A stretch of DNA of 64,000 bases from Gammaproteobacteria bacterium (GTDB lineage: Bacteria; Pseudomonadota; Gammaproteobacteria; Ga0077536): the NCBI GenBank assembly GCA_019747795.1, contig JAIEQK010000011.1, positions 7,737-71,736 on the forward strand. The letters are read 5' to 3'. Positions 11,750-58,236 of this stretch are shown one piece after another. How positions within the stretch are numbered: position 1 is the first letter of the stretch; each line of letters starts with the position of its first letter. Position numbers and translations under genes: made by a program. The notes under the pieces are model-generated. The model was not told where the DNA came from and searched no databases. It was given only the letters and a program-made list of their open reading frames with translations.

Positions 11750-11758
11750 GACGCGTCG

Positions 11759-12946: not shown

Positions 12947-13060
12947 ATACGTCGAGTGACCCATGCGCGTCTCGCGCCGTCCACGGCAGCGCGGAACCCC
13001 ACACGGGCTGTCTCCCACAACCATCACCATCACCCTGAACCTTCAACCGAGGATAGACAC

Positions 13061-13339: not shown

Positions 13340-13391
13340 GCGCGCGGCCCGGCCGTCCGCGGGGCGGCCGGGCCCATGGAGGACCGCGTCC

Positions 13392-14030: not shown

Positions 14031-14287
14031 CTCCTGTGGCGTTGCTCGCGTCTATCTGTCCAGGGCGCTCGATCGCGATCAACGAGGTCGAGCATGACGG
14101 AGGCAGAGAAGATGAGGGCCATTCGAATGGAATACGTTATGAGAATTCGTCGCCGCGTACTTGGCTTGCTTGCACGGGCGCGAGCGCGCATCGCTCACCT
14201 GTGCGGAAGGATGTCGGCCTGCTGCGCGGGCCGGGGTTGCATCTCGACCGCCGCGCACGGTGATACCCCGACCGGGAGCACGCGCAC

Positions 14288-14440
14288 ATGAGCGCCGAGC
14301 TCGAGAAACGCCGAGACGAGGCGCTGGTCAGCGTCGCCTGGCTGGCGGACAACCTCGATCGACCGGGCCAGCGCATCGTCGACATGCGCAAGGGCGATGG
14401 CTATGACGCTGCCCACATACCCGGGGCCGTCAGCCGATGA
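14288..14440 (+). pseudogene. Truncated rhodanese/sulfurtransferase N-terminal fragment (50 codons).
   Basis: Translation 'MSAELEKRRDEALVSVAWLADNLDRPGQRIVDMRKGDGYDAAHIPGAVSR*' matches the start of a rhodanese domain through the AHIPGA motif, then hits a stop. Neither continuing frame extends the domain. ATGA overlap with the next ORF. Confidence 0.35.
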
Positions 14441-15216: not shown

Positions 15217-15222
15217 GCGCGA

Positions 15223-15245
15223 GGGGCGCCCGTCGTCGGGCGCCC
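15223..15245. terminator. GC-rich hairpin between the convergent VOC and acr3 genes. Candidate bidirectional terminator.
   Basis: GGGGCGCCCG-tcgt-CGGGCGCCC inverted repeat read directly in the sequence. Confidence 0.35.
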
Positions 15246-15253
15246 AGGTGAGA

Positions 15254-16306
15254 TCAGGCCGTCCGCAAGCCGCGCTCGTACCACTGCTTGGAGCGATTCA
15301 CGACGCGCACCACCAGCAGCATCACCGGGACTTCGATCAGCACGCCCACCACGGTCGCGAGCGCCGCGCCGGACTCGAAGCCGAACAGGCTGATGGCGGC
15401 CGCGACCGCCAGTTCGAAGAAGTTCGATGCGCCGATCAGGGCCGATGGACAGGCCACGTCATGGGACTCGCCCAACGCGCGGTTCAGCCCATAGGCCAGC
15501 GCCGAGTTGAACAGCACCTGCAACAGTATCGGTACCGCGAGCAGGGCGATCACCAGCGGCTGATCGAGGATGGCCTTGCCCTGGAAAGCGAACAGCAGCA
15601 CCAGCGTCGCGAGCAGCGCGGTGATCGACCAGGGACCGATGCGTTCCATCGCGGCGTCGAAGGCCGCCTGGCCGCCGGCCAGCAGGCGTCGGCGCCACGC
15701 TTGCGCCAGCAGCACCGGGATGACGATGTACAGCACGACCGACGTGAGCAAGGTCGCCCATGGCACGGTGATGGACGAGATGCCGAGCAGGAGCGCGACG
15801 ATGGGCGCGAAGGCGAACACCATGACGGTGTCGTTCAAGGCCACCTGCGAAAGCGTGAACAGCGGATGGCCATTGGTGAGACGGCTCCACACGAACACCA
15901 TCGCCGTGCAGGGCGCGGCCGCCAGCAGGATGAGGCCGGCGATGTAGCTGTCCAACTGCTCTGCCGGCAGCCAGGGCGCGAACAGGCCGCGAATGAACAC
16001 CCAGCCGAGCAGCGCCATCGAGAACGGCTTCACCAGCCAGTTCACGAACAGCGTCACGCCTATGCCTTTCATGTGTCGGCGCACTTCGTGCAGCGCGCCG
16101 AAGTCCACCTTCACCAGCATCGGGATGATCATCACCCAGATGAGCAGGCCCACTGGCAGGTTGACCTGCGCGAACTCGAGCCGGCCGATGGCCTGGAACA
16201 GGCTGGGCAGCGCCTGGCCGGCGCCGATGCCGACCAGGATGCAGAGAAACACCCACAGCGTCAGGTAGCGCTCGAAGATGCTCATGGGTGCGGGGGCAGT
16301 GCTCAC
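15254..16306 (-). CDS. acr3: Arsenite efflux permease, ACR3 family.
   Basis: 'FERYLTLWVFLCILVGIGAG' N-terminus and conserved 'AAAPCTAMVFVWS' Cys motif. ~345 aa with 10 TM helices. Last gene of the arsRDA-acr3 operon. Confidence 0.9.
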   Translation of the reverse strand: MSTAPAPMSIFERYLTLWVFLCILVGIGAGQALPSLFQAIGRLEFAQVNLPVGLLIWVMIIPMLVKVDFGALHEVRRHMKGIGVTLFVNWLVKPFSMALLGWVFIRGLFAPWLPAEQLDSYIAGLILLAAAPCTAMVFVWSRLTNGHPLFTLSQVALNDTVMVFAFAPIVALLLGISSITVPWATLLTSVVLYIVIPVLLAQAWRRRLLAGGQAAFDAAMERIGPWSITALLATLVLLFAFQGKAILDQPLVIALLAVPILLQVLFNSALAYGLNRALGESHDVACPSALIGASNFFELAVAAAISLFGFESGAALATVVGVLIEVPVMLLVVRVVNRSKQWYERGLRTA

Positions 16307-16340
16307 GAGGGGGACTCCATTGGTGCGTGTGGTCGAATGA

Positions 16341-18113
16341 CTATGGCGCGTCCGCGCCGTGGGTGGCCAGCCGTCGCAGGCGTTCGACGCCCACCGGCTC
16401 TTCGGTCAACAGCGGTACAACGGCGTGACGCCTGGCGTGTCGGGTGCGTACCAGGTCGATCTCGCGCAGCTCGTTGGCGGCGCGCTGGCGGAGCAGGGGC
16501 GCTTCGGGATGGCTGGCGGCGACGCAGTTGTTGATGACCCAGGCCCAGGGCTCGATGCCGGCCCGGCGCAGATCCTGCTGCAGGCTCGCGGCTTCCAGCA
16601 CCGGGGTGGTCTCCGCCAGCGTCACCAGCAGGACCTTGGTGCGGTCAGGATCCTGCAGCTGCAGCATCGGCGTGTGATAGCGCACCGACGAGCCGCTCAG
16701 CTGGCGGACGATTTCGCGGTGATAAGCGCCGGTAGCGTCGAGCAGCAGCAGTGTGTGACCCGTGGGCGCCGTGTCCATGACCACGAACTTCCTGGCCGCT
16801 TCGCGGATCACTCGCGAGAAGGCCTGGAATACCGCGATCTCCTCCGTGCAGGGCGAGCGCAGGTCTTCCTCGAGCAACGCGCGACCGTGCGCGTCGAGCT
16901 TGGCGCCCTTGGTGTCCATGACGTGCTGACGATAGCGCACGGTCTCCGCCTGTGGATCGATGCGGTCGACGGTCAGATGGGGCAACGCGCCGTCCAGCGT
17001 GTCGGCGAGGTGCGCGGCCGGGTCGGAGGTGGTCAGGTGCACGTCGTGCCCGCGCAGCGCGAGTTCGACGGCGACCGCGGCGGCGAGCGTGGTCTTGCCG
17101 ACCCCGCCCTTGCCCATCAGCATCACGAGCCCATGACCGCTCACGGCGATGTCGTCGACGAGCGAGGCCAGGCTCGGCGCCTGCAGTGGCGGCAGGGCCG
17201 GCAGCTGGGCGTCGGTCGCATCCATGGTCTCGCGCAGCAGCTGCCGCAGTGCGTCCACGCCGACGAGATTGAAGGGCTTGAGCGCGACTTCATCGCGCGG
17301 CAGTGCCTGCAGCGCTTCGGGCAGGGCGGCGAGTTCCTGTTGCTCCCGTCGGCACACGGCCTGGGCCAGAGGGTCGTCGCCTGCGCCGTCGCGCGGGTAG
17401 ACGCCGTTCACGACCAGGAACTGCTGGTCGATCCCCAGCTCGGCGAGCTCATCGTGGGTGCGGGCGGCTTCACGCAGGGTCGAGCGCTGAGCGCGGGCGA
17501 CCAGCACCATGCGCGTGCGCGTCGAGTCGGCCAGCGCCGCCACGGCAGCGCGATACTGATCGCGCTGTTTCTCCAGGCCGGCCAGCGGGCCGAGACAGGA
17601 GGCGTCGCCCTTGCCGGCGTCGAGAAAGCCGCTCCAGGCGCCCGGTAGCTGCAACAGGCGAATGGTGTGGCCGGTGGGCGCCGTGTCGAACACGATGTGC
17701 GCGTAGCGCTGCGCGAGATCGGCGCTGGTCAGCAGGCCCGTGAATTCGTCGAAGGCGGCGATCTCGGTGGTGCACGCGCCGGACAACTGCTCTTCGATGC
17801 TGCGCACGACACTTTCCGGCAGCACGCCGCGTACCGGGCCGACGATGCGATCGCGGTAGGCCTGGGCGGCGGCCTGGGGATCGATCTCGAGCGCGCTCAG
17901 GTTCGGTACCGCGGCGATGGGCGTCACGCGATTGCCGATCGCGATGTCGAACACCTGGCCGACGTTCGAGGCCGGATCGGTGCTGACCAGCAGCACCGCC
18001 TTGCCGCGACCGGCGAGTTCCACCGCCGTCGCGCACGCCAGGGAGGTCTTGCCGACGCCGCCCTTGCCGGTGAAGAAGAGGAAGATCGGCGGCGACTGCA
18101 GAAAGCGGAACAT
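16341..18113 (-). CDS. arsA: Arsenite-transporting ATPase ArsA (two homologous halves).
   Basis: Two Walker A motifs (FTGKGGVGKTS and LMGKGGVGKTT). Two signal-transduction DTAPTGHT motifs. 590 aa. Start MFRFLQSPP computed from the track by frame arithmetic. Confidence 0.9.
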   Translation of the reverse strand: MFRFLQSPPIFLFFTGKGGVGKTSLACATAVELAGRGKAVLLVSTDPASNVGQVFDIAIGNRVTPIAAVPNLSALEIDPQAAAQAYRDRIVGPVRGVLPESVVRSIEEQLSGACTTEIAAFDEFTGLLTSADLAQRYAHIVFDTAPTGHTIRLLQLPGAWSGFLDAGKGDASCLGPLAGLEKQRDQYRAAVAALADSTRTRMVLVARAQRSTLREAARTHDELAELGIDQQFLVVNGVYPRDGAGDDPLAQAVCRREQQELAALPEALQALPRDEVALKPFNLVGVDALRQLLRETMDATDAQLPALPPLQAPSLASLVDDIAVSGHGLVMLMGKGGVGKTTLAAAVAVELALRGHDVHLTTSDPAAHLADTLDGALPHLTVDRIDPQAETVRYRQHVMDTKGAKLDAHGRALLEEDLRSPCTEEIAVFQAFSRVIREAARKFVVMDTAPTGHTLLLLDATGAYHREIVRQLSGSSVRYHTPMLQLQDPDRTKVLLVTLAETTPVLEAASLQQDLRRAGIEPWAWVINNCVAASHPEAPLLRQRAANELREIDLVRTRHARRHAVVPLLTEEPVGVERLRRLATHGADAP

Positions 18114-18127
18114 GGCTCGCGCGCGTT

Positions 18128-18493
18128 TCAGCAGCACTGCTCGCCGCTGCAGCACGCGCCGGCGCCGGGCGCGGACGGCGCATCGCCCTGACGAGCCCAG
18201 CGCGCGAGCTCGGTGCGGCTCGGATAACGACCGTTCAAAACCGCCTCGCCATCCACGAGGACGAGCGGCAGGCCGGCCTCGCCACTGGCATGCAGAAAGG
18301 CGCTGACGACCGGGTTGTTCGCGAAATCGAGCGGCGCCTGGGCGAGATTGTGGCGTTGGACATCGACGCCCTGGCTGCGCGCCCATTCGAGGTCGGCAGC
18401 GAAATAGAGCAGGGCTTCGTCGACGTCGACGCCGCATACACCGCTCGCACAGCACAGGGCCGGGTCGTAGATGTCGATGACAGGCACGGTCAC
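18128..18493 (-). CDS. arsD: Arsenical-resistance metallochaperone/repressor ArsD.
   Basis: 'MTVPVIDIYDPALCCASGVCG' (Cys12-Cys13-Cys18 As(III) site). C-terminal 'GACCSGEQCC'. Closely parallels canonical ArsD. Confidence 0.9.
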   Translation of the reverse strand: MTVPVIDIYDPALCCASGVCGVDVDEALLYFAADLEWARSQGVDVQRHNLAQAPLDFANNPVVSAFLHASGEAGLPLVLVDGEAVLNGRYPSRTELARWARQGDAPSAPGAGACCSGEQCC

Positions 18494-18570
18494 TCCTCTC
18501 GTTCAGGTCTCGCCCCATCGGGCGGTGCAGTGGGACAACATGCGTCCTGCGCGGAACGGCGCGGACCTCG

Positions 18571-18936
18571 TCACTTCGCTGCCACGCGGGGCCGCGCGGT
18601 CTTTGCTGGCCGGCAGGACACCGACGCAAGGGCGTCGACGCACTGCTCGGGATGGCCCTGGCAACACTCGTCGGTGAGGAAGGCCACCAGCGCCTGCACC
18701 GCCGGCAGCAGCGCCCGGTAGCGTTGGAAGCGCCCCTCGGAGGTCACGGCGACCAGGCCCGCATGGGTCAGGGTCTTGAGATGGAAGGAGAGGTTGGCCG
18801 GCGTGACGCCGAGCGCGGTGGCGATTTCGCCGGCCACCAGGCCCGTGGGCTCGTGGCGCACCAGGAGGCGGAAAGTCTCCAGGCGCACAGCGGAGGACAG
18901 GGCCTCGAAGACCTTGCTGGCATCGGCAGAGCGCAT
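18571..18936 (-). CDS. arsR: ArsR-family As(III)-responsive repressor with a C-terminal Cys-Cys-x-Cys sensing site (atypical/AfArsR-like type).
   Basis: wHTH 'VRLETFRLLVRHEPTGLVAGEIATALGVTPANLSFHLKTL'. No Cys in the DNA-binding helix, but C-terminal 'DECCQGHPEQC'. First gene of arsR-arsD-arsA-acr3. Confidence 0.8.
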   Translation of the reverse strand: MRSADASKVFEALSSAVRLETFRLLVRHEPTGLVAGEIATALGVTPANLSFHLKTLTHAGLVAVTSEGRFQRYRALLPAVQALVAFLTDECCQGHPEQCVDALASVSCRPAKTARPRVAAK

Positions 18937-19061: not shown

Positions 19062-19745
19062 TCACTCGCTTCGCGGGGCTTGGGCCGGCGGCGCGAGCCG
19101 CTGGTCTTCGTTGCGATGCCGCAGGTCCTGCTCGAGGTTCTCGATCTCGACCTGCTTCAATCCCAGTGCCGGCTCGCTCTGCAGGAAGCTGGTCCAGGAG
19201 GTCTTGGACTTGAAGTGCTCGAGGATCTCGGCATTGATGCCGTAGAGCTCGTGGTTGCGCTTGCGCGCCGCGGTGAGATCGGCACGAGTGGCGGTGAGCT
19301 GGGTCTCGAGTTCGCCCTTGGCGGCCAGCGTCGCGCGATGTTCGGCCGCGAGCTCGCGGCACTTGGCGACCGTGTCACGGAGGCGTTGTTCGGTCTGCGC
19401 GAGGCGTTCGCCGCTGCCGGCGAGCTTCTTGTCCAGTGATTCGGACTTCCGTGCGGCGAGCTCGAGATCGGTCGCGAGTTCGTCTCGCGCGTGCTTTTCA
19501 CGCGCGAGATCGCGCTCGAGGCCTGCGATCTTCACCTGCGCGGCGGCGTTGTCCGCCTCCAGGCGCGTGCGCTGCTCGGCGAGCTGTCGCAGGAGTCCCT
19601 GGGCGCGATTCAAGGCCTGTTGCAGGGCGGCGGGATCGGCGGCGGCCTGTTGCGCCTGCGGCGCTGCGACGTGCGCCACGAGCAGCGCCGCGGTGAGCAG
19701 GCGCAGGCGCCAGCGGCCCGCGGCCCGGCGCTCAGAAGTTCGCAT
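19062..19745 (-). CDS. Secreted/periplasmic coiled-coil protein (DUF3450-like) associated with the TonB cluster.
   Basis: Signal peptide 'RLRLLTAALLVAHVAAPQA' followed by ~200 aa of heptad-rich Ala/Glu/Arg/Leu sequence. Overlaps the upstream porin gene by 14 nt. Confidence 0.5.
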   Translation of the reverse strand: MRTSERRAAGRWRLRLLTAALLVAHVAAPQAQQAAADPAALQQALNRAQGLLRQLAEQRTRLEADNAAAQVKIAGLERDLAREKHARDELATDLELAARKSESLDKKLAGSGERLAQTEQRLRDTVAKCRELAAEHRATLAAKGELETQLTATRADLTAARKRNHELYGINAEILEHFKSKTSWTSFLQSEPALGLKQVEIENLEQDLRHRNEDQRLAPPAQAPRSE

Positions 19746-21482: not shown

Positions 21483-22166
21483 TCAACTGCGCGAGGAGAT
21501 GCGGATTCGGATCGGCTGCGGCAGGTCCTCGGGCGGCGCATGCGACAGGCGCAGACCACCGGCCAGCGCACGCCGCACGGCCTCATCGACGGCCCGGTCG
21601 CCGGTACCGCGCATGACCTCGGCCTGCTGCAGACGGCCTTCGCCGTCGATCCAGATGCGCACGACCACCGCGTAGCGGCCCTTGTGCATCTCCGAGATGT
21701 CGGCGAGCAGGGCCTGCAGTTCGGTCTGAATGACGCCGGCGTACCACTTCTTGCTGTCACCGCCGCCGATGAGCGCGCGCCCGCCCTTCTTGGCCTTGAG
21801 ACCAAAGCCGTCCGCGCCCGCGACGCCGTCGGCGTCGAGGCCGAGATCGTCACCCGGCGGCGCTTCGTCACTGGGCTGCTCGGCCACCGGCTCCGGCTCG
21901 GGTTCGGGGACATCCACTTCCTGCACTTCCGGCGGCGGTTCTTCCACCTGCGGTGGCGGCGGTGGCGGGGGAGGTGGCGGCTGCACTATGGAGATCTGCT
22001 GGATCTCGGGCGCCTTGGGTGCGTCCGCGCCGCCCATGCTGCCAAAGAAGACATACAGGCCTGCGCCGATCACGAGGACGACCAGTCCGGCGGTGATCTG
22101 CGCGCCGTAGCGGCGCCAGAAGCCGTCTTCACTGTCGTCGTCGGCGTCGAATCTTGGTTCCATCAT
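21483..22166 (-). CDS. tonB: Energy transducer TonB.
   Basis: N-terminal TM anchor. Proline-rich spacer 'PPPPPPPPPPQVEEPPPEVQEV...PEPEPEP'. C-terminal TonB domain 'YAVVVRIWIDGEGRL'. Confidence 0.75.
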   Translation of the reverse strand: MMEPRFDADDDSEDGFWRRYGAQITAGLVVLVIGAGLYVFFGSMGGADAPKAPEIQQISIVQPPPPPPPPPPQVEEPPPEVQEVDVPEPEPEPVAEQPSDEAPPGDDLGLDADGVAGADGFGLKAKKGGRALIGGGDSKKWYAGVIQTELQALLADISEMHKGRYAVVVRIWIDGEGRLQQAEVMRGTGDRAVDEAVRRALAGGLRLSHAPPEDLPQPIRIRISSRS

Positions 22167-22573
22167 TTGACGAGCTTCTGTGTGACGAGTCCGATTTGCG
22201 TGATGCCTATGCGGCCGCACATGTCCAGCACGTCGACCACCAGTTGGTACTGCACGGTCGAGTCGCCCTTGATGATCACCGGCAGGCCGGGATCGGCGGC
22301 GTGCAGGCTGCCGAGGCGCGACTCCAGTTCCTGGATGGTCACGGGATAGGTGTCCAGGTAGATGGTGCCGTCGGCGGAAATGGTCACCGCCTTGGTTTTG
22401 GGCGTTTCCAGCGGCGGCGCGCTGCTCGCCTGCGGCAGGTTGACCTGTATGCCCTGCACCGCGGCGGTGGTCATGATGATGAAGATGATCAGCAGCACGA
22501 AGGTGAGGTCCACCATCGGCGTGATGTTGATGTCGTCGTAGGGTTCGTTGTCGCCCTTGAGTTCCGCGGCCAT
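22163..22573 (-). CDS. exbD: Biopolymer transport protein ExbD/TolR.
   Basis: 'INITPMVDLTFVLLIIFII' TM segment and periplasmic ExbD fold. 136 aa. 4-nt overlap with tonB. Confidence 0.85.
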   Translation of the reverse strand: MAAELKGDNEPYDDINITPMVDLTFVLLIIFIIMTTAAVQGIQVNLPQASSAPPLETPKTKAVTISADGTIYLDTYPVTIQELESRLGSLHAADPGLPVIIKGDSTVQYQLVVDVLDMCGRIGITQIGLVTQKLVK

Positions 22574-24528: not shown

Positions 24529-26154
24529 TCAGAAGCCGTACTCGAGACGAAAATGCACGCGCGAGTCGCCGCTCGCGATGGTTCCGGAGTCCTTGAAGGG
24601 CGTGGCCCAGTCGAGTTCGGCCTGGAGCGCTTCGTAGGCGCGCAGACGGAAGCCGAGACCCGCGCTCCACAGCGTTGCTGTCGCGTCCTGGGCGGGCAGC
24701 GCGTCCTGGGTGCGACCGCTGGCGCCCTCCACGAAACCGTGCACGCGCGCGCTCGATAGCGCGGTCCACAGCCGCTTGGCGAAGTCGGGCGAGCGCAGTT
24801 CGAGCGAGGCGCGCAGGCCGTCGTCAAAGAACTGCTGGGATTCGAGGTAACCGCGGATGCTCTGTACGCCGCCGACGCCGAACTGCTCGTTGCTGATCAG
24901 CGGCGCGGCGGCGACCTGGCCGTCGAGCGCGCCGAACATCTCCGCGCCGCCCGGGAGGGGCTGCAGGTGCGAGAGCCGCGCATTGAGATAGATGAAGTTC
25001 GGCTTGGCGCGAAAGCGCTTGTCGGCGAATTCGCTGGTGCGATTGCCCATGCCGCGCAGCGCGAAGTTGAGCCCCGCGCTGAACTCGGTCTCGCTCGAGC
25101 CGCCGAGATACACGCCGCTGTAGAGCGCGCTCAGCACGTGGTAGCTGATGGGCGTGTTGAGCGTGTCGGCGCCGAGCAGCTGGATGGACTCACCGAAGTC
25201 CTTGTAGTCTCCGCCGAGCGTCAGGCTCTGGAAGAAGCTGCCGCGCGCCGGCAGCGGCAGGGTCGCGCGCACCCCGCCGATGATGCCGTTGCCCACCACG
25301 CCGAGCGTGCCGACCGCGGCTACGTCGCTCGTGGTCTTGACGCCGTAGAGCGTGAAGACCTTGTCCGAGTCCGGCAGCCGGAAGCTGTAGGTCGAGGAGA
25401 ACACCTCGACGTTGTCGCGGTTCTCGGGCGCCACCTGGTAGGCGGCCGAGATCGCGTGTTCGCGCTGCCACAGGTTGCCGTAGCGCACTTCGGCGTTCAG
25501 CCGCAGCCTCTCGGTGTTCTGCGTGAAGCGGTCGTTCAGTTCGAGGCTCGCGTGCACGGGCAGCTTGTCCTCGACCCTCAGCTCCACTTCGAGCGTGCCG
25601 GGCGTCGAGCCCGGGCGCAGCACCGGGGTCACGCTGCGGTCCGGGCTCGCCTGGTTCAGGCGCTGGAGTTCCTTCTGCACGGCCGGTAGATGCGGCACAC
25701 CGCCCTCGGCCAGGGCCGGCACCTGGGCGCGAATGCGACCGAGGGAGAAGTATCGCGAGCCGGTGACCTTGAGCCGCTGCACGCGCCCTTCGACCACGCG
25801 CAGTCGCACGATGCCGGCGTCCACGTCCTGCTCGGGGATGTCGATCAGCACGGTGCCGTAGCCGCGTTCCTTGTAGACCTTCTCGAGCGCGCCGCGCGCG
25901 GCCTCGACCGTGTCGATGGTCTTGTCCGGTCCGAGATGGGGGTAGACCGCGCGCTCGATGAGCTCCGCGTCGATGAGCGTGTTGCCCTCGACTTGGTATT
26001 CCCACACGTCGAAAGTCGCGTCGTCTTCCTCGGCGGACGGTTCCGAAGCGGGTGCTTCCTGGGTCGGCGCTTCCTGTGCGGCAAGGTCGACGGTCGTCAA
26101 CAGACCGGCTATGCAGACGGCACCGATGGCAGCCCGCGCCAGGACTCCGGTCAT
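24529..26154 (-). CDS. Two-partner-secretion outer-membrane transporter (TpsB; ShlB/FhaC/HecB family).
   Basis: Signal peptide 'MTGVLARAAIGAVCIAGLLTTVDLAAQEAP'. POTRA-containing N-terminus (FDVWEYQVEGNTLIDAELIERAV). C-terminal 16-strand barrel ending '...RVHFRLEYGF'. Confidence 0.8.
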   Translation of the reverse strand: MTGVLARAAIGAVCIAGLLTTVDLAAQEAPTQEAPASEPSAEEDDATFDVWEYQVEGNTLIDAELIERAVYPHLGPDKTIDTVEAARGALEKVYKERGYGTVLIDIPEQDVDAGIVRLRVVEGRVQRLKVTGSRYFSLGRIRAQVPALAEGGVPHLPAVQKELQRLNQASPDRSVTPVLRPGSTPGTLEVELRVEDKLPVHASLELNDRFTQNTERLRLNAEVRYGNLWQREHAISAAYQVAPENRDNVEVFSSTYSFRLPDSDKVFTLYGVKTTSDVAAVGTLGVVGNGIIGGVRATLPLPARGSFFQSLTLGGDYKDFGESIQLLGADTLNTPISYHVLSALYSGVYLGGSSETEFSAGLNFALRGMGNRTSEFADKRFRAKPNFIYLNARLSHLQPLPGGAEMFGALDGQVAAAPLISNEQFGVGGVQSIRGYLESQQFFDDGLRASLELRSPDFAKRLWTALSSARVHGFVEGASGRTQDALPAQDATATLWSAGLGFRLRAYEALQAELDWATPFKDSGTIASGDSRVHFRLEYGF

Positions 26155-26319
26155 CACAGGTCGCTCAGCGACCGGGCTCGAGGCGCGCGAGGAGAGTAAC
26201 GGGACGCCATCGAGGGTGCGGAGCAACATAAGCCGCGCATCATGGCGACGATTTATGACCAATGCGTGACGTTTATGTCGGTTGTTGGTGTGATGGCAGA
26301 GGGCGCTTACATGCATGGG

Positions 26320-26900
26320 CTCCGCCGAGCGCCGATGGACCCTCGCTTTCGCGAGGGTGACGGAGAAGTGAAAACTCGACGTGCTCCGTCATTCCTGCGA
26401 AAGCAGGCATCCATGGGCTTCGCCAACCGCAGATGGACCCCTGCTTTCGCAGGGGTGACGGAGACGCCATGCTGACGCCCAAAGTGACGTGGTCGCCGAG
26501 GCCTCCAATCCGTCATGCCTGCGAAAGCAGGCATCCAAGGGCTTCGCCAGCCGCAGATGGACCCCTGCTTTCGCAGGGGTGACGGAGAAGTGAAAACTCG
26601 ACGTGCTCCGTCATTCCTGCGAAAGCAGGAATCCAAGGGCTTCGCCGATCGCAGATGGCCCCCTGCTTTCGCAGGGGTGACGGGAAAGGAGACGTCAGGG
26701 TCGTCACGTCGAGCCTGCGTAATCAAGCATCCATTGGCTTCGCCCGGCGCCGATGGACCCCTGCTTTCGCAGGGGTGACGGAGAAGTGAGAACTCGAAGA
26801 GCTCCGTCATTCCTCCGAAAGCAGGAATCCAAGGGCGTCACTGACCGCAGATGGATCCCTGCTCGCGCGGGAGCGCCGGCGGAGCCTCGGCGCGTCGCCG
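26320..26900. repeat. Tandem array of ~6 copies of a ~100-120 bp imperfect-palindromic repeat (REP/MITE-like).
   Basis: Core 'CCGTCAYYCCTGCGAAAGCAGG' and its reverse complement 'CCTGCTTTCGCAGGGGTGACGG' recur at ~26344, 26441, 26561, 26663, 26761 and 26870, with conserved inter-arm sequence. This generates spurious ORFs with reiterated PAFAGMTE/SFLRKQ peptides. Confidence 0.7.
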
Positions 26901-26911: not shown

Positions 26912-28888
26912 TCAGCGCTGCTGCTTCAACTGCTTGCGCAGTCGCGTGATCTCCTTGTTGCGGGCCGCGATGATGTTGTCGCGGTCCTTGATCTGCCTCG
27001 CGCGCCGGGTCAGCAGGCTGTTCTTGCTCGTGATGGTCGCCTGTGCGGAGGTCAGCTGGGTCTGCAGCGCGGCCGCGCTGGCCTGGGCCTCGGCCAACTG
27101 GTCGAGCAGGTCGCTGGCGCCGGAGCCCGTCGCGTCGACGTTCTTGCGCTTCAGGTTGACCGGGTCGAACACCACCGGCGCCGAGCAGCTCTCGCCGCGA
27201 TAGGTCCAGGTGTTGATCGGCAGCGGGTCGTCCGGGTTCATGAGACCGGCCGCGGTGAGCGGTGCGTCGGGCAGAGCGCCACCGGTGGAGGCGAGGGGGG
27301 CAGACAGCCAGCCGCCCATGCCCCAGGGGTGCAGGAAGTTCTGGTTGGTGTCGAACACGTCCACCGGGCCCGCCACGCACACCGAGTCGAAGATCGCGCG
27401 CAGTTCGGACGGCACCGCGTTCGGATCGATCGCGGAGTTGTCCTTGCGCATCTGGCAGGTGCCTTCGTAGTGATCGAAGTAGTCGCCGAGCCACACGTTC
27501 TCGATGGTCGGCGCCAGCTCGTCGATCTTGGCGAAGCGGTACTTCTGCGCGAGGTCGGGATTCTTCTCCGTGCTCTGCACGCCGATCGCCCAGCCGTAAC
27601 GCGGACCGAGCGGGCCGGCGCCGCCGAACAGCGTGCTGGTGTTGGTGTTGCCGTTCTCGAGGTCGTTCAGACAGCGGTCGACGTCGCTCGAGCCGCGGTT
27701 CGAGCACACCACCGACTGGCTGGAGTAGCTGCAGGTGCTCGGCCCGGGATTCAGCGGCTGCTCGGCGGTCATCTCGCCGTTGACGTTCATGCACGGGCGG
27801 TCGAGGAAGAAGGCGTTGAACTGCGCCTGGGTGCCCGAGCCGTCATTGCGCCGGCAGACGTGCACGCGCTGGTTGTCGAGCGTCGGCACCGCGCTGGTGG
27901 TGGGCACCGGCAGACCGGCCGCGGTCGCGGCTTCTACCAGGGTCACGCCGTCACGGTGCACCTGGCTCCACTTGGTGATGCGACCGGTCAGGATGCCGGC
28001 CACTTCCGCGCGGGTCAGGTTCGGCATGCAGGCCTCGCTGTCGGCCACCGTGGCGCGGCCCAGGGAGGGCGAGACGTCGGCCGTCGCGTTCTTGGTGCCG
28101 GCGGGGATGCGCGCGACGTCCAAGGCTTCCGGCAGGCCGTCGCCGTTGGTGTCGGCCGAGGTAGGCAGCAGCGTGCCCCACGCGGCGTTGGACGGATGGC
28201 AGGCGCTGGCGGTCGGGAACTGCAGCGCCTGCAGGGCGTTGCGCAGGCCGAGCGTCATCGGCACGCCGAAGCCCAGGCCGGCGAGCGGCTTCACGTCGAT
28301 CAGCGCAGAGTCACTGGCGGTGAAGGCGATGCCGGTGGACGGCGTGTTGACGTCGAAGAACAGCTTGGGCTCGACGTCCGAGGTGCCGATGTCGCCGCCA
28401 TTCAAAGGCTGGTTCGGAATGTTGCAGTTGTTGTACAGGCGGAAGCTGGTGCCGGCACCGGTCTGGGTGGTGACCGCGGCTGCACAGGCCGTTGCCGGGT
28501 TGAAGGCCGGCGTGGGTATCGGGTACTGCAGCGCGCTCTCGCTCGGGCGTGAGATGGGGGTGGTGCCGTCGCCCGAGCCGCCGCCCTGCTTGATGGCGCG
28601 TACCGTGCTGCCGCCGACGGCGCCCTTCAGATCGCAGATCACGACAAAGTCATCGGCGTCCTTCTGGTAGACGGTGATGTCCTTGCCGGACAGGCCACCG
28701 TTCGGATCGCAGGCATTGTCGATCAGGCTGTTGCGCACGAACTGCGCGGAGGCCGTGGCGCCGGAGAAGTACACCGTGTAGTCGATGGACGCGTCAATCG
28801 GCTCGAAGTCGATGGCCTGAGCGTGGACGCCCGCGAGCGCGAGCGCGGTCGCGCAGGCGAGACGCAAGGGAGATCTGTGCATGTGCAT
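26912..28888 (-). CDS. Secreted enlarged PstS-like (periplasmic phosphate-binding-protein fold) protein with a C-terminal coiled-coil tail, paralogue 1.
   Basis: Signal peptide MHMHRSPLRLACATALALAGVHAQA. 'TVYFSGATASAQF' and 'VCRRNDGSGTQAQFNAFFL' parallel the PstS GAGATFPAPVY / RRADGSGTSFVFTSYL motifs. ~80% identical to the next gene. Tail 'LTRRARQIKDRDNIIAARNKEITRLRKQLKQQR'. Confidence 0.5.
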   Translation of the reverse strand: MHMHRSPLRLACATALALAGVHAQAIDFEPIDASIDYTVYFSGATASAQFVRNSLIDNACDPNGGLSGKDITVYQKDADDFVVICDLKGAVGGSTVRAIKQGGGSGDGTTPISRPSESALQYPIPTPAFNPATACAAAVTTQTGAGTSFRLYNNCNIPNQPLNGGDIGTSDVEPKLFFDVNTPSTGIAFTASDSALIDVKPLAGLGFGVPMTLGLRNALQALQFPTASACHPSNAAWGTLLPTSADTNGDGLPEALDVARIPAGTKNATADVSPSLGRATVADSEACMPNLTRAEVAGILTGRITKWSQVHRDGVTLVEAATAAGLPVPTTSAVPTLDNQRVHVCRRNDGSGTQAQFNAFFLDRPCMNVNGEMTAEQPLNPGPSTCSYSSQSVVCSNRGSSDVDRCLNDLENGNTNTSTLFGGAGPLGPRYGWAIGVQSTEKNPDLAQKYRFAKIDELAPTIENVWLGDYFDHYEGTCQMRKDNSAIDPNAVPSELRAIFDSVCVAGPVDVFDTNQNFLHPWGMGGWLSAPLASTGGALPDAPLTAAGLMNPDDPLPINTWTYRGESCSAPVVFDPVNLKRKNVDATGSGASDLLDQLAEAQASAAALQTQLTSAQATITSKNSLLTRRARQIKDRDNIIAARNKEITRLRKQLKQQR

Positions 28889-29170
28889 GTTCCTCGAAAG
28901 CACGTGGTCGAAGCTGTGGGGCCGAGGACGCCAGGTGCAGGGGGGCATGGTGCGCGCGCTGCGGCAAGCGGTCGGGCTGGGCTGCCAGCGGCCGCGACTA
29001 TGTCACCGTCCGGTGACATATCCGTGACAATGTTGCAATGAAATGTAAGGAAGCAGGCGGGGCGGGCAGCGCGCGGAACGGCGCGGACCAGGGAGGGACC
29101 AGACCAGCCCGCGAGCGGGCTGGCATGGCGTCGGCACGGGCGACCCAGCGGGCCGCCCGTGCCCAGGCGA

Positions 29171-30922
29171 TTACAGGTCGCCTTCGCGGGTCGCGTTCAC
29201 CGGATCGAACACCACCGGGGCCGAGCAGCTCTCGCCGCGATAGGTCCAGGTGCTCACCGGCTTGGGATCGTTCGGATCCATCAGGCCGGCCGCGGTCAGC
29301 GGCGCATCCGGGGTCGCGCCACCCGTCGCCGCGAGCGGCACCGACAGCCAACCGCCCACGCCCCAGGGGTGCAGGAAGTTGAGGTTGGTGTCGAACACGT
29401 CAGCCGGTCCGGCGGCGCAGGCATTGTTGAAGATCGCCCGCAGCTCCGACGGCACCACGTTCGGATCGATCGACGAGTTGTCCTTGCGAATCTGGCAAGT
29501 GCCCTCGTAATGATCCGTGTAGTCGGCCAGGTAGACGTTCTTGATGCTGGGCGCGAGACCGTCGATCTTGGCGAACCGGTAACGGAAGCCGAGGTTCGGG
29601 TTCTTCTCCGTGCTCTGCACACCGATGGCCCAGGCGAAGCGCGGACCCAGGGGGCCGGTGCCGCCGAACAGGCCGCTGGTGTTGGTGTTGCCGGCGTCCA
29701 GGTCGTTCAGGCAGCGATCGACCTCGCTCGAACCACGGTTCGAGCACACCAGCGACTGACCCGTGTAGGAGCAGGTGTTGGCGCCCGGGTTGAGCGGGGC
29801 TTCGGCGGTGATGGTGTCGCCCACCTTCATGCACGGCCGCTTCAGGAAGAACGCGCTCAGCTGCGCCTGGGTGCCCGAACCGTTGTTGCGACGGCAGATG
29901 GCGATGCGCTGGTTGTTCAGCGCGGGCACCGCGTTGGCGGCAGGCACGGGCAGGCCCGCGGCCGTCGCGGCCTGGACCAGGTTGGTGCCGTTGCGCTGGA
30001 TCTGGGTCCAGCGGGTCAGGCGCCCGGTCAGCATGCCGGCCACTTCAGCACTGGTCAGATTGGGCATGCACTGCTCGCTGTCCGCGACGCGTGCGGTGCC
30101 GAGCGAAGGCGACACGTCCGCGACCGGGTTCTTGGTGCCGCTTGCCACGCGCGCCACGTCGACCAGTTCGGCCACACCGTCGCCGTTGATGTCGACGTTG
30201 GTCGGCAGCAGGGTGTTCCATGACGCGTTGTTCGGATGGCAGGGGCTGCTCACCGGGAACTGCATCGCCTGCAGGGCATTGCGCAGGCCCGTGGTCATCG
30301 AGATGCCGAAGCCGAGGCCGGCCAGCGGCTTGACGTCGAGCACGGCCGAGTCGGCTGCCGTGAAGGCGATGCCGGTGGAGGGCGTGTTGACGTCGAAGAA
30401 GAGCTTGGGCTCGACGTCCGAGGTGCCGATGTCACCACCGGACAGCGGCTGGTTGGGGATATTGCAGTTGTTGTACAGGCGGAAGCTAGTGCCGGCGCCG
30501 GTCTGGGTGGTGACCGCGGCGTTGCAGGCGGTGCCAGGATTGAAGGCCGCGGTCGGGATCGGGTACTGCAGCGGGCTGGCGGCCGGCTGCGAGATCGGCG
30601 TGGTGCCGTCACCCGAGCCGCCGCCCTGCTTGATGGCGCGCACGGTGCTGGCGCCGACGGCGCCCTTCAGATCGCAGATCACGACGAAGTCGTCGGCGTC
30701 CTTCTGGTAGACGGTGATGTCCTTGCCGGACAGGCCGCCGTTCGGATCGCAGACGTTGTCGATGAGGCTGTTGCGCACGAACTGCGCGGACGCGGTCGCA
30801 CCGGCGAAGTACACGGTGTAGTCGATCGACGGGTCGATGGGCGCGAAGTCCACCGCCTGCGCGCCGAGCGCCGCGGCGCCGAGTGCGGCGCTGACGGCGA
30901 AATTGAGAAGCTTGCGTTTCAT
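29171..30922 (-). CDS. Secreted enlarged PstS-like protein, paralogue 2.
   Basis: Signal peptide MKRKLLNFAVSAALGAAALGAQA. Same motifs (ICRRNNGSGTQAQLSAFFL). Collinear with paralogue 1 except for the C-terminal tail. Confidence 0.5.
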   Translation of the reverse strand: MKRKLLNFAVSAALGAAALGAQAVDFAPIDPSIDYTVYFAGATASAQFVRNSLIDNVCDPNGGLSGKDITVYQKDADDFVVICDLKGAVGASTVRAIKQGGGSGDGTTPISQPAASPLQYPIPTAAFNPGTACNAAVTTQTGAGTSFRLYNNCNIPNQPLSGGDIGTSDVEPKLFFDVNTPSTGIAFTAADSAVLDVKPLAGLGFGISMTTGLRNALQAMQFPVSSPCHPNNASWNTLLPTNVDINGDGVAELVDVARVASGTKNPVADVSPSLGTARVADSEQCMPNLTSAEVAGMLTGRLTRWTQIQRNGTNLVQAATAAGLPVPAANAVPALNNQRIAICRRNNGSGTQAQLSAFFLKRPCMKVGDTITAEAPLNPGANTCSYTGQSLVCSNRGSSEVDRCLNDLDAGNTNTSGLFGGTGPLGPRFAWAIGVQSTEKNPNLGFRYRFAKIDGLAPSIKNVYLADYTDHYEGTCQIRKDNSSIDPNVVPSELRAIFNNACAAGPADVFDTNLNFLHPWGVGGWLSVPLAATGGATPDAPLTAAGLMDPNDPKPVSTWTYRGESCSAPVVFDPVNATREGDL

Positions 30923-30956: not shown

Positions 30957-31859
30957 TCAGGCCGCGGTGCGGCGACGGCCGGCGAGGCCGACCAGCGCGG
31001 AGCCGAGCAGCCACACGGCGCCGGGCACCGGAATGGGCGCCGCGGTCGGCGCGAAGCTCAGCGTGCCGTTGGTCGCCAGCGTCCACTTGCCGAGCGCCGC
31101 GGGGGCCGGTGCACCGGTGAAGTTGTTGGTCTCGAGGAAGTAGAAGTCGACGGCGTTGCCAATCGTGCCCTCGGTGTTGAAGCCGAAGGTGCTGGAGCCG
31201 CCGAAGTTGTTGTCGTGGTAACCGAACTGGCCGGGTGCGAACACGCCGGAGAGGTTCAGCGCGGCGGTGCCGGCGGCCGAGCCGTCGGTCTTGATGTTCA
31301 CGCCTTGCACGAACGACACGAAGGCCGCCTCGGCGCTCGAGTACTCAGAGAGCAGGCCGGGCTTCTTGGCCGCGACAGCGGCCGCGCTCTCACCGGCGGT
31401 GCTCAAGTAGCCGAGGTCGATGGCCTCGAAGGTGTTCGGGTCGAAGCCCGAGACGTTGTGCACGGCGGTCAGGTTGAAGCTGATGTCCTTGCCGGCATGG
31501 GTGGACAGGAAACTGGTCAGGTTGGCGTCCGGCGCGATGCTGAACGACAGCGAGCCCAGGGTGCCGGCGTTCAGCGCCTGCACGAAGGTGCGGGAGGTGA
31601 TGCCGAGATCGCGGACGTAGGAGCGGTTGCTGCCCGGATCGGACGGGCTGCGCGCTACGATCGAGACGAACAGTTCGCCCACGCCGCCGATGCTGTTGTT
31701 GCTGCCGCCGAGATCCGGCGCGCCGAAGTCCAGGCCGGCCAGCGTGTTGTTGCCGAGGCCCGGCAGGCCGTCGAGGCTGATGGCAGCCTGCGCGGGTGCC
31801 GTGGCGCACAGCGCCGCGGTCACGGCCGCTGCCGCTGTGAGGTTGTGCAGTGTCTTCAT
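30957..31859 (-). CDS. PEP-CTERM-type exosortase substrate (secreted Gly/Ser/Asn/Thr-rich protein) with a variant sorting signal.
   Basis: Signal peptide MKTLHNLTAAAAVTAALCATAPAQA. C-terminus '...PIPVPGAVWLLGSALVGLAGRRRTAA*' (Pro motif, hydrophobic helix, Arg cluster). GGAG RBS 7 nt upstream of the ATG. Confidence 0.55.
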   Translation of the reverse strand: MKTLHNLTAAAAVTAALCATAPAQAAISLDGLPGLGNNTLAGLDFGAPDLGGSNNSIGGVGELFVSIVARSPSDPGSNRSYVRDLGITSRTFVQALNAGTLGSLSFSIAPDANLTSFLSTHAGKDISFNLTAVHNVSGFDPNTFEAIDLGYLSTAGESAAAVAAKKPGLLSEYSSAEAAFVSFVQGVNIKTDGSAAGTAALNLSGVFAPGQFGYHDNNFGGSSTFGFNTEGTIGNAVDFYFLETNNFTGAPAPAALGKWTLATNGTLSFAPTAAPIPVPGAVWLLGSALVGLAGRRRTAA

Positions 31860-32412
31860 CGAAGTCTCCATAAAGGTCATCCCAGGGGTGATCCGCAAAG
31901 CCATCCTTGGTCTTTGTGTCACGCCGACCGCCGCGGATCGCGAGGGCCGGCGCGTCGCCCGCTCGGTACCGGCGCCGAGCGCGCATTGCGATTGCCGTTT
32001 CGTTGCTGACCTCATCCGGCGTCGTGGACAGTCAGCGGGGGGCAATGTGGCAGCGCTTGGCGACACCTTCGCGGCAGGTTCGTGACAATCGTGTCTCAGC
32101 GTGTCATTCAGGATGGAAGAGAGCGGGCCGCAATGCCGCGCGGCGGACCATGAGGGTCGCGCTGGGTTGGGGGCGGAGTGCCCGGAAGGCAGTGCAGCGT
32201 GCGGCCGTCACGTAGCCGCAACCACGGACGGTTACCCTGCGCAGCCCCGCGCTGGAGTGAAGACTGCCATGGCCCGGTCGCTAGATGAAGAAGGACCGGT
32301 CAGGGCACGCGTGTGAAAGGTGGAGAATTCTTGCGCTGCCGCATTTGGTGACCGCGTACATATAAATGTCGCGCGCGGGGCTGCTACTATTCGTCGGGTG
32401 GATACCAGTTAC

Positions 32413-56631: not shown

Positions 56632-58236
56632 ATGGACCAGGCAATGGCCGGCACACTTTCGCCTGATGAGGCACCCGCCGAACGCTGGCATTTCGGCATG
56701 CGCGCCCTACTGGCGGCCGCGCTCGCGCTAGGCCTGCTCGGCTTTTTGTTCCGCGACGGCATCGCGGAGCTCCTGCACCTTTGGGAAACCAAGGAGGAAT
56801 ACAGCCACGCCTATCTCCTGCCGGCCCTCAGCCTGTTCCTGTTCTGGCAGAAAAAGAACGAGCTGCTCGCCCGGCCGTGGCGCGGGTCTTGGGCGGCGGT
56901 GGGCTTGTGTGCGGCCGGTCTGCTGGTGTTCTTCGTCGGCCAACTGAGCGCGATCTTCGCCGTCATTCACTATGCGCTGTTTATCACTGCCGCCGGCGTT
57001 GTGCTGGCGTACGCAGGTACGCGCAACCTGCGTTACCTGTGGGCCGGACTGGTGCTGCTGCTGTTCACCGTGCCGTTTCCGCAGTTCCTCTACCAGGCGA
57101 TGTCGACCAAGCTGCAGCTGCTGTCCTCGGAACTCGGCGTGGCGGTCATTCGGGCGCTCGGGGTCAGCGTCTACCTCGAAGGCAATGTCATCGATCTCGG
57201 CAGCTTCAAGCTGCAGGTGATCGAAGCCTGTAACGGCCTGCGCTATCTCTTCCCCCTGGCGAGTTTCGGCTTCCTCTGTGCATACCTGTATCGTGGCCCG
57301 TTCTGGCACAAGGTGGTGATCTTCGTCTCGGTGGCACCCATCACGGTGTTCATGAACAGCCTGCGCATCGGCATCATCGGCATCACCGTCGAACGCTGGG
57401 GACAGGCCATGGCGGAAGGCTTCCTGCATGATTTCGAGGGCTGGGCCATCTTCATGGCCTGCCTAGCTGTGCTGTTCGCCGAAATCGCGATCCTTTCGCG
57501 CCTGCAGCGTCCACCGGCCAGTTTCAGCGACTCCTTCTTCGTAGAAATTCCAGCACCCACTCCGCCGGGCGCGCGTGCCCACGACCAGCCGCTGCCGGCG
57601 TCGTTCCTCGCCTGCCTGGTGCTGGTGTCGGTGTCCTGCGTGGTTTCGCTCGTGGTCGGAAACCGGCCGGAGATCACCCCACCGCGCAGCGACTTCGAGG
57701 AATTCCCACTGCAGGTGGGCGAGTGGGTCGGCAAGCGCGAAATGCTGGACAAGATCTATATCGACGCGCTCAAGTTCACCGACTATGCGCTGATCAATTT
57801 TCGCCGCGACGACAATGCGGCGCCGGTCAATTTCTACGTGGCCTATTACGGCTCACAGCGTGCCGGCGAGTCGGCGCACTCCCCGCGGTCCTGCATTCCG
57901 GGCGGTGGCTGGAAGATCGAGGGCCTGGACACGCTCGAAGTCCCGCTCAGCGCGGCGGGTGTGCCACTGCGCGTCAACCGGGTGGAAATCGGCATGGGTG
58001 ACAATCGGCAGCTAGTCTATTACTGGTTCCAGCAGCGCGGGCGGGTGATCACCAATGAATACCTGGTCAAGTGGTATCTGCTGTGGGACGCCCTCACGCG
58101 CGACCGCTCGGATGGTGCGCTGGTGCGCTTGACTACCATGGTGCCCGCCGGCGCCGAATTCAGTGTTGGTGACAAGATCCTGCAGGATTTCATCGCCTCC
58201 CTCGGCGACAAACTCGATGCTTTCGTTCCCCGCTGA
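56632..58236 (+). CDS. xrtA: Exosortase A (XrtA/EpsH) fused to an EpsI-like C-terminal periplasmic domain.
   Basis: 8-TM exosortase core with catalytic 'VIEACNGLRYLFPL', 'FMNSLRIGIIGI' and the His region 'GFLHDFEGWAIF'. ~200-aa C-terminal extension '...NFYVAYYGSQRAGESAHSPRSCIPGGGWKIEG...'. Confidence 0.8.
   Translation: MDQAMAGTLSPDEAPAERWHFGMRALLAAALALGLLGFLFRDGIAELLHLWETKEEYSHAYLLPALSLFLFWQKKNELLARPWRGSWAAVGLCAAGLLVFFVGQLSAIFAVIHYALFITAAGVVLAYAGTRNLRYLWAGLVLLLFTVPFPQFLYQAMSTKLQLLSSELGVAVIRALGVSVYLEGNVIDLGSFKLQVIEACNGLRYLFPLASFGFLCAYLYRGPFWHKVVIFVSVAPITVFMNSLRIGIIGITVERWGQAMAEGFLHDFEGWAIFMACLAVLFAEIAILSRLQRPPASFSDSFFVEIPAPTPPGARAHDQPLPASFLACLVLVSVSCVVSLVVGNRPEITPPRSDFEEFPLQVGEWVGKREMLDKIYIDALKFTDYALINFRRDDNAAPVNFYVAYYGSQRAGESAHSPRSCIPGGGWKIEGLDTLEVPLSAAGVPLRVNRVEIGMGDNRQLVYYWFQQRGRVITNEYLVKWYLLWDALTRDRSDGALVRLTTMVPAGAEFSVGDKILQDFIASLGDKLDAFVPR

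Follow-up and report, generated by a model that had tools for sequence, protein, structure and literature searches.

The stretch considered here, below called the window, comprises 64,000 nucleotides of contig JAIEQK010000011.1 from a gammaproteobacterial assembly, and its subject is a tandem pair of genes for long, exported relatives of the phosphate-binding protein PstS, referred to as paralogs A and B. They stand near genes for two-partner secretion (TPS), for an ExbB-ExbD-TonB-porin module and for an exported protein with a VPLPA-CTERM-type sorting signal, called the partner (Table 1). A first-pass annotation made from the sequence had described two roughly 80% identical genes for products of 678 and 583 aa. 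The duplication is evident, with 78% identity over 580 residues aligned without gaps and 79.3% identity at the nucleotide level, and the length of B stands. In the case of A, the open reading frame (ORF; 26912..28948, minus strand, 678 aa) is longer than the likely gene. The start of A is probably Met23 (28882), which gives 656 aa, because the alignment with B begins there and because P0004, a database entry under the name 'substrate-binding domain-containing protein', has this length as well. The window also shows 100% identity to P0001, a protein from a 'Gammaproteobacteria bacterium' metagenome-assembled genome. The ratio of nonsynonymous to synonymous substitution rates (dN/dS) between the two copies is 0.27, so both are under purifying selection.

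Sec-type signal peptides are found on A and B, as had been annotated, each ending in AQA when read by eye: MKRKLLNFAVSAALGAAALGAQA followed by VDF and MHRSPLRLACATALALAGVHAQA followed by IDF. The mature N-termini of the two paralogs are VDFAPIDPSIDYTVYFAGATAS and IDFEPIDASIDYTVYFSGATAS, and the mature lengths are about 560 aa for B and about 633 aa for A. Relative to E. coli PstS, this is an enlargement of about 1.75-fold, not the twofold one first proposed. The mature part contains 14 Cys at identical positions in A and B.

A alone carries a C-terminal tail of coiled-coil character, which had been noticed before. The tail is rich in Ala, Leu, Gln and Arg and also contains Lys, and it is absent from all other members of the family alignment, A1. 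Since it is kept, with substitutions, in the ortholog of A in the close relative L005, it is genuine coding sequence. It probably tethers or oligomerises one of the two copies. The idea that the tail derives from the 227-aa coiled-coil protein encoded downstream was rejected for want of any meaningful similarity. The nearest relatives (L080-L084) have a single gene of this kind, which restricts the duplication and the tailed copy to the lineage of the window and L005. We regard both as recent elaborations of that lineage.

Fold, binding site and extent of the family

The AlphaFold2 (AF2) model of B, built on alignment A1, has a pLDDT of 88.8 and a pTM of 0.85. The first-pass annotation had staked its proposal on a type-II periplasmic binding protein (PBP) fold, and the model bears this out. 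The PDB yields 23 matches at E<=1e-3, and every one of them is a phosphate-binding protein of the PstS type, with S. pneumoniae, L. brevis, Synechocystis, V. cholerae, M. tuberculosis, E. coli and P. aeruginosa among the sources, so that the fold is of the type-II PBP class and closest to phosphate-binding proteins. No DING structure is among these significant matches. Their template modelling (TM) scores are 0.41-0.68 when normalised by the target and about 0.3 when normalised by the query. From the latter value, the PBP core accounts for roughly half of the chain, and insertions between the site residues for the remainder.

Four conserved blocks are seen in A1, namely SGATAS, K-x-GGGSGDG, G-T-S-D and C-R-R-x-x-G-S-G-T-Q-A-Q. 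The two motifs on which the PstS relationship had originally been proposed, YF(A/S)GATASAQF and CRRN(N/D)GSGTQAQ, are both found in A and B. We take the four blocks to be the phosphate-binding segments of PstS, a mapping to the E. coli protein that does not come from a structural superposition. On the same mapping, the residues T43, S103, D169, R345 and S349-G350-T351 of B presumably correspond to T10, S38, D56, R135 and S139-G140-T141 of E. coli PstS, and would contact inorganic phosphate (Pi). These positions are nearly invariant among 167 full-length representatives: Ser or Thr at 43 in 158, S103 in 163, D169 in 164, R345 in 166, S349 in 162, G350 in 164 and T351 in 159. Such conservation of the putative contact residues suggests that binding of phosphate or a phosphoryl group is the function under selection. 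Eight of the 14 Cys are similarly near-universal, each being present in 159-165 of the 167, and they could form four disulfides. Their persistence points to a protein built for an oxidising, extracytoplasmic location.

Sequence models of PstS reach this family poorly. NCBIfam TIGR02136 scores 20.2 bits with A and 10.7 bits with B against a cutoff of 206.6, and TIGR00975 scores 11 bits against a cutoff of 205. With Pfam PF12849 (PBP_like_2; cutoff 27), A passes at 32.9 bits and B fails at 20.5 bits; the match is partial, covering about 60 of 267 profile columns, and is found at E<=1e-3 in 13 of 29 family members. When PDB sequences were searched, neither the single protein nor the family profile produced more than marginal matches to PstS (E 0.006-1.5), and DING was not among them. 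Thus, the relation to PstS rests on fold and motifs.

The family is large. A word-indexed search returned 30 relatives, nearly all labelled 'hypothetical', whereas an exhaustive profile search reached 1,434 cluster representatives with E<=1e-3, of which 464 also pass E<=1e-30; most are 470-650 aa long, and the ten that were looked up are unnamed or 'hypothetical'. In a genome scan, members were found in many Gammaproteobacteria, including the cultured Methylococcus capsulatus, Methylomonas aurea and Methylocaldum, and no Pseudomonas locus was returned. The long PstS-like proteins are a distinct, unnamed family that current Pfam and NCBIfam models miss.

The neighbourhood in the window and in related loci

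Linkage was counted over 79 loci that carry a long PstS-like gene (L-numbers denote such loci), and the ORF upstream of it over the 55 loci that have one. A TpsB homolog is present in 62 of the 79, mostly directly downstream on the same strand. Homologs of the TpsA C-terminus and of the partner are each found in 41 of the 79, the former usually 8-10 kb further on and the latter usually just upstream. Among the 55 upstream ORFs, 47 end in VPxPAAVW(L/M)(F/L)GSGLxGLxGxxRR(R/K). Individual loci show how compact the arrangement can be. In L080-L084, the partner, one PBP-like gene, TpsB, ExbB, ExbD and TonB form an operon-like run with short gaps. In M. capsulatus Texas, four genes (a PKD-domain partner, the PBP-like gene, TpsB and a TpsA whose N-terminus is of the TPS type) stand alone among housekeeping genes. 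In L003, TpsA, a 285-aa protein and the PBP-like gene adjoin a TpsB-ExbB-ExbD-TonB-Porin_5-coiled-coil series. In L001 and L002, a type II secretion system (T2SS) of the Hxc-like kind is followed by a protein of about 280 aa, the PBP-like gene and then a TpsA of 3.6-4.0 kaa. TPS and DUF3739 domains are found in the TpsA of L001-L003, and a TPS-type N-terminus in that of L028.

Genes of the phosphate ABC importer are missing from this neighbourhood, as the first-pass annotation had stated: no pstC, pstA or pstB-type gene occurs among about 45 annotated ORFs of the window, a set that leaves out a few ORFs of the exopolysaccharide (EPS) locus, and none appears in the gene tables of the related loci L001-L003 and L080-L084. 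A and B are nevertheless not without partners, since they belong to a conserved, operon-like cassette with the VPLPA-CTERM protein, TpsB and TpsA, and the ExbB-ExbD-TonB-porin module. An Hxc-type T2SS was considered as a universal partner and rejected, being near only 5-6 of the 79 loci. Thus, the primary and ancient linkage of the family is to two-partner secretion, and not to a T2SS or to an ABC importer. The conserved unit consists of the VPLPA-CTERM partner, the long PstS-like protein, TpsB and a giant TpsA with DUF3739, and ExbB-ExbD-TonB, Porin_5 and the coiled-coil protein are an extension of this unit in the lineage of the window.

Table 1. Features of the window discussed in the text (positions are those of the window)
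Feature	Position	Strand	Evidence or remark
Paralog B, long PstS-like protein, 583 aa, with signal peptide	29171..30922	-	ORF; AF2 model; PDB fold matches; motif conservation
Paralog A, long PstS-like protein, 656 aa from Met23 (probable start)	26912..28882	-	ORF; alignment with B; P0004
C-terminal tail of A, 76 aa, coiled-coil-like	26912..27142	-	Weak matches to coiled-coil families; composition
Partner, 300-aa exported protein, VPLPA/PEP-CTERM-type C-terminal sorting signal (…PIPVPGAVWLLGSALVGLAGRRR)	30957..31859	-	Homologs in relatives
TpsB-type outer-membrane transporter, POTRA_2 + ShlB	24529..26316	-	Pfam; true start probably downstream of ORF start
DUF2341 + LamG + MotA/ExbB fusion, 606 aa	22594..24414	-	Pfam, NCBIfam; same gene in L003, L080-L082
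ExbD	22163..22573	-	Pfam PF02472, E 9e-31
TonB-like protein, TonB_2 C-terminal domain	21483..22220	-	Pfam PF13103
Porin_5 putative outer-membrane porin, 584 aa	19732..21486	-	Pfam PF16930, E 1.5e-147
Coiled-coil protein, 227 aa, end of module	19062..19745	-	Weak coiled-coil matches; kept in L003, L004, L005
Giant TpsA exoprotein (DUF3739), C-terminal ~1,330 aa	1..3993	+	Pfam PF12545, E 1.5e-36
XrtD, VPLPA-CTERM-specific exosortase (EpsH + EpsI fusion)	56632..58236	+	TIGR04152, 575 bits, cutoff 400; Pfam
Pho-box-like site TTGTCAC-GGAT-ATGTCAC-CGGA-CGGTGAC	29002..29030	-	Spacer between B and A, ~130 bp upstream of A, coding strand
Weaker Pho-box-like periodic repeats TTGTCAC-GAAC-CTGCCGC-GAAG-GTGTCGC	32060..32088	-	~200 bp upstream of partner gene
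REP-like palindromic repeat block between A and TpsB gene	26320..26900		Sequence read

In the window, the genes for TpsB, ExbB, ExbD, TonB, Porin_5 and the coiled-coil protein are co-directional with A and follow it in that order. The TpsA frame is open from base 1 and its gene extends past the left edge of the window; the C-terminus that is present is 44-63% identical to the TpsA of L001-L004. The TonB motor lies in one gene run with TpsB and Porin_5, with no TonB-dependent transporter nearby, and its ExbB has an N-terminal extension of about 380 aa with DUF2341 and LamG (concanavalin-like) domains.

The partner begins with MKTLHNL and ends with PIPVPGAVWLLGSALVGLAGRRRTAA, that is, with a VPLPA-type motif, a hydrophobic helix and a cluster of Arg and Lys. 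The window protein itself scores under the cutoffs of the PEP-CTERM models. In related loci, the gene just before the PBP-like gene encodes a homolog that is 48-61% identical to the partner. Relatives of the partner are named by NCBI as proteins with PEP-CTERM or VPLPA-CTERM sorting domains, and the one in L015 passes TIGR03370 (VPLPA-CTERM) with 28.1 bits against a cutoff of 25.35. The AF2 model of the partner (pLDDT 82.7, pTM 0.78) has no significant fold relative in the PDB (best E 0.17), and this protein may have an uncharacterised fold. Its likeness to PepA, a flocculation protein, is weak, since a score of 30 bits (cutoff 80) does not amount to membership. The first-pass annotation had mentioned a PEP-CTERM protein and an exosortase EPS locus as neighbours of the pair; both are there, and the former proves to be a conserved associate rather than an incidental one. 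XrtD, encoded within that locus, is the likely processing enzyme for the partner. A search of the literature returned nothing relevant on VPLPA-CTERM/XrtD biology or on expression of the methanotroph cassette under phosphorus limitation. In the Methylococcus-type loci (L028 8064-9446, L044, L051 and L074), the upstream partner is longer, at 371-514 aa, with a PKD domain in L028, and it appears to be anchored or sorted differently in that clade because the VPLPA-CTERM tail is lacking there.

Control by phosphate was approached through Pho boxes, for which the first-pass annotation had suggested a search. The E. coli 18-bp consensus with up to three mismatches gave chance-level matches only, none of them near the cluster, and the shorter half-site pattern TGTCAY-N5-TGTCAY was adopted instead. 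The only perfect instance of that pattern in the 64-kb window is the site upstream of A, whereas the repeats in the promoter of the partner gene are weak. Across relatives, 15 sites fall within promoter regions of the partner (54 non-redundant regions from -400 to +150 of its ORF start, sites allowed up to one mismatch), where 1.0 would be expected if sites were as frequent as in the rest of the loci (P 4e-13). In 200 composition-matched resamples, the mean was 0.36 sites and the maximum 2, and none of the 200 reached 15. Among them, the site in L080 is perfect and that in M. capsulatus has one mismatch. Since only 14 of the 54 regions have a detectable site, Pho control is supported rather than proven, and judged from these motifs A and B are probably regulated by Pi. 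A simple scan for sigma-70 promoters over 18.9-32.6 kb found nothing.

Several further observations concern the surroundings. The TpsA gene is set apart from the other TPS/TonB genes by an arsenic-resistance island (4040-18629); in L003, the two parts are within about 4 kb of each other. The island encodes an ArsR-type regulator, a small multidrug resistance (SMR) pump, glyceraldehyde-3-phosphate dehydrogenase with a separate major facilitator superfamily transporter (an ArsJ-like system), an ArsC of the low-molecular-weight-phosphatase type, a second ArsR, ArsA and an Acr3/SBF permease. A gene for a sigma factor of the extracytoplasmic function type (Sigma70_r2 + r4_2; 13248-14030) lies inside or beside it. 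On the other side of the pair, the EPS locus (32471-64000) encodes ManC, a Wza-like exporter, Wzy, Wzx-like proteins, glycosyltransferases and a 1,072-aa protein with beta-helix and carbohydrate-binding module domains (49231-52449). The repetitive extragenic palindrome (REP)-like block holds several copies of a repeat (…cgtcacccctgcgaaagcaggggtccatc… / …ggattcctgctttcgcaggaatgacgg…), with similar repeats after the A ortholog in L005, and may mark a duplication or rearrangement junction. Small unannotated ORFs follow the PBP-like gene in L003 (12104-12610, 168 aa) and L084 (7867-8103, 78 aa).

Likeness to known phosphate-related systems

With classical PstS (E. coli 1a54/2abh and S. pneumoniae PstS1 4exl), A and B have the type-II PBP fold and the four phosphate-binding motifs in common. 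They differ from it in their larger size given above, in the absence of pstCAB neighbours, in scores far below the cutoffs of the PstS models and in their genomic partners.

A closer parallel is found in Pseudomonas. DING proteins, of about 40 kDa, begin with DINGGGATLPQ, and LapA and LapB are described as low-molecular-weight phosphatases starting with -VTGGG (PMC2225411, PMC2242829). Named members are Psp of P. fluorescens and PA14_55410 of P. aeruginosa for DING, and PA0688/PA0689 for LapA/LapB. DING and LapA are induced by Pi limitation (PMC2225411) and secreted in an Hxc-dependent manner (PMC2225411, PMC2242829), and PstS together with a 40-kDa DING protein has been found on surface appendages at low Pi (PMC2242829). 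Like the family in the window, DING and LapA are exported PstS-fold relatives without linkage to pstCAB, and LapA and LapB also form a tandem pair, as do A and B. In Pseudomonas, the slot between hxc and the gene for a giant haemagglutinin-type TpsA is occupied by DING (Psp) or the DING-like LapA/LapB (PMC2225411). Members of the present family fill the same slot in L001 and L002, between the Hxc-like T2SS and the giant TpsA, and the comparison with DING and LapA made in the first-pass annotation is therefore apt. A and B are not DING proteins by N-terminus or size, however. They start with VDFAPID/IDFEPID without a DINGGG N-terminus and, at about 58-66 kDa, are about 1.5 times as large as DING. 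They also differ from both DING and LapA in their large insertions, the eight Cys conserved across the family, the VPLPA-CTERM partner and the usual position beside tpsB instead of a T2SS.

The rest of the cluster also has a counterpart in P. aeruginosa. There, pdtB-exbB2-exbD2-tonB4-PA0696 (a putative porin)-PA0697 is one unit that depends on PhoB and on the sigma factor VreI and has functional pho boxes, the TonB system being called uncharacterised and PA0696-0700 unknown in function (PMC2729926, PMC4971064, PMC7035377). A review of TPS systems gives the function of PdtA as unknown and names no PBP-type accessory (PMC5422565). The window matches this island in domain content and order: a TpsB with POTRA_2 and ShlB is followed by ExbB, ExbD, TonB, a porin and a small exported or coiled-coil protein. 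The two are also alike in a giant DUF3739-type TpsA, and the Pho-box-like motifs of the window may correspond to the pho boxes of P. aeruginosa. By domain content and order, the cluster is probably of the PdtA/PdtB type. The differences are that no hxc, phdA or vreAIR (PUMA3) genes were identified in the window, where no search was aimed at vreA or vreR, that ExbB carries DUF2341 and LamG, and that the ars island splits tpsA from the rest.

As an analogy only, the haem-haemopexin system HxuA/HxuB/HxuC of Haemophilus influenzae combines a TPS-secreted surface protein with a TonB-dependent outer-membrane step for the capture of a scarce nutrient (PMC4873976). It differs from the system in the window in its nutrient and proteins, in using a TonB-dependent transporter instead of Porin_5 and in having no binding-protein component.

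Role of the long PstS-like proteins

A and B most likely have an enlarged PstS fold, are exported and stabilised by disulfides, and bind either orthophosphate or a phosphoryl group without serving an ABC importer. Beyond this, we lean, with modest confidence, toward a role for them as accessory proteins of a PdtAB-type TPS cluster. They would be induced by Pi starvation and bind phosphate in the part that DING/LapA play in Pseudomonas, working at the envelope or surface in concert with the TpsA fibre, with the XrtD-sorted partner and, in this lineage, with the TonB-porin module. Fold, site conservation, export signals, linkage and Pho-box enrichment are the observations from which we infer the ligand, the location and the hand-off of phosphate. 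At low Pi, PhoB would turn the cluster on, and the TpsA fibre and the exosortase-sorted partner would form a scaffold at the surface or in the matrix. The PstS-like protein would then capture Pi at or near this scaffold, or in the periplasm beneath it, and the captured Pi would be passed toward the cell, possibly with the aid of the TonB-energised porin module. In such a scheme, the PstS-like protein would be the functional counterpart of DING/LapA in the hxc-lapA-pdtAB-exbB2D2-tonB4 island of Pseudomonas. A surface or matrix location of A and B is plausible.

Several points weigh against this role. Sequence similarity to PstS is very weak, with curated PstS models far under cutoff, and the insertions, about half of the modelled protein and with no assigned role, could change the ligand. 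No way through the outer membrane is evident: the 64-kb window contains no T2SS, one occurs within 10 kb in only 5-6 of the 79 loci, and TpsB proteins are not known to export folded PBPs. Gene linkage is an indication of functional coupling and not of mechanism, orthology to the P. aeruginosa genes is read from domain content and gene order rather than from direct sequence comparison, and a Pho-box-like site with up to one mismatch is found in only 14 of the 54 promoter regions. Finally, the ligand, localisation and expression proposed for the family are read from sequences and a model.

Among the alternatives, A and B may be free scavengers or LapA-type phosphatases that leave through a T2SS and act in the medium or matrix, the TPS genes being merely co-located in a Pho island. 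The gene directly follows the Hxc-like T2SS in L001 and L002, a T2SS is also near in L012, L040 and L058, Pseudomonas offers the precedent of Hxc-dependent DING and LapA (PMC2225411, PMC2242829), and many conserved, disulfide-forming Cys would suit an extracellular protein. We nevertheless regard this explanation as unlikely, since no T2SS is found in the window or within 10 kb in >90% of the loci, while TpsB is present in most, and since the M. capsulatus cassette stands alone among housekeeping genes. The phosphatase activity that the first-pass annotation had entertained finds no support either: conservation falls on the residues that form the PstS binding site, and nothing in the analysis indicates catalysis. 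As an observation apart, the Hxc-like T2SS of L002 is flanked (1-2696) by genes for a PstS-type PBP_like_2 protein of classical size and for a phosphate porin of the OprO/OprP type, so that the long family coexists with ordinary Pi-uptake components in one island.

If the protein instead stays in the periplasm, which the Sec signal without a dedicated secretion route would make the default, it may act as a Pi sensor or gate: the apo form would license or chaperone TpsA secretion through the POTRA domains of TpsB or the TPS domain of TpsA, and the Pi-bound form would block it. The very tight, same-strand position beside tpsB would fit, and the strictly conserved ligand site fits a sensor equally with a scavenger. 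However, a second Pi checkpoint would be redundant where transcription is already under Pho control, as appears to be the case, a duplicated and tailed copy is hard to explain, and the TPS review describes no PBP-type accessory for any TPS system (PMC5422565), so that we rate a sensor as rather a long shot. The insertions suggest another possibility, in which they open the PstS cleft and turn the protein into an adhesive or matrix-organising lectin beside the TpsA adhesin and the partner, with a phosphorylated macromolecule or organic phosphate as ligand (exopolysaccharide, lipopolysaccharide or lipid head groups, extracellular DNA, polyphosphate or mineral phosphate). About half of the protein is indeed insertion relative to PstS, the linkage is to an adhesin-type TpsA and a VPLPA-CTERM protein, the XrtD/EPS locus adjoins in the window, and the partner weakly resembles PepA. 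This is improbable, because the full set of Pi contacts is retained, which is typical of a buried orthophosphate site; the Asp by which PstS selects protonated phosphate is among them. Least probable is an ordinary PstS paralog that feeds a PstCAB encoded elsewhere and has its neighbourhood by coincidence. Orphan pstS copies are common, and the fold and conserved binding site would agree with it. Yet linkage to TpsB, TpsA and VPLPA-CTERM genes over dozens of distant genera cannot be coincidence, and the size, insertions, disulfides and low model scores are unlike those of a PstS that docks to a transporter.

The proposed role as a phosphate-binding accessory of the TPS cluster can also be taken further. 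The PstS-like protein might be an integral third or fourth component of an unrecognised class of TPS system for phosphate acquisition, in which the TpsA fibre and the partner display or dock the binding module, of high affinity for phosphate, outside the cell and ExbB-ExbD-TonB-porin imports Pi. We hold this stronger version to be doubtful but worth stating. If true, such a Pi-dedicated TPS machine would be the phosphate counterpart of the HxuABC haem system, and a function would be assigned to the PdtAB/ExbB2D2/TonB4/PA0696-0697 virulence island of P. aeruginosa.

The pairing of a long PstS-like protein with a TPS cluster appears to be undescribed. Its linkage is tight and ancient, extending over methanotrophs, sulfur oxidisers and marine hydrocarbon degraders and usually including an exosortase-sorted partner, which argues that phosphate binding is part of how such TPS systems work and not a chance neighbour. 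This bears on P. aeruginosa, in which phosphate starvation strongly induces DING/LapA and PdtAB/ExbB2-ExbD2-TonB4/PA0696-0697; these have a link to virulence, and the papers cited here give their functions as unknown. Nothing is overturned by the present finding. What it offers is a concrete connection, open to testing, of phosphate binding with a secretion island that is widespread and whose function has lacked an explanation, and the cultured, non-pathogenic carriers Methylococcus and Methylomonas are tractable hosts in which the function of the island can be addressed.

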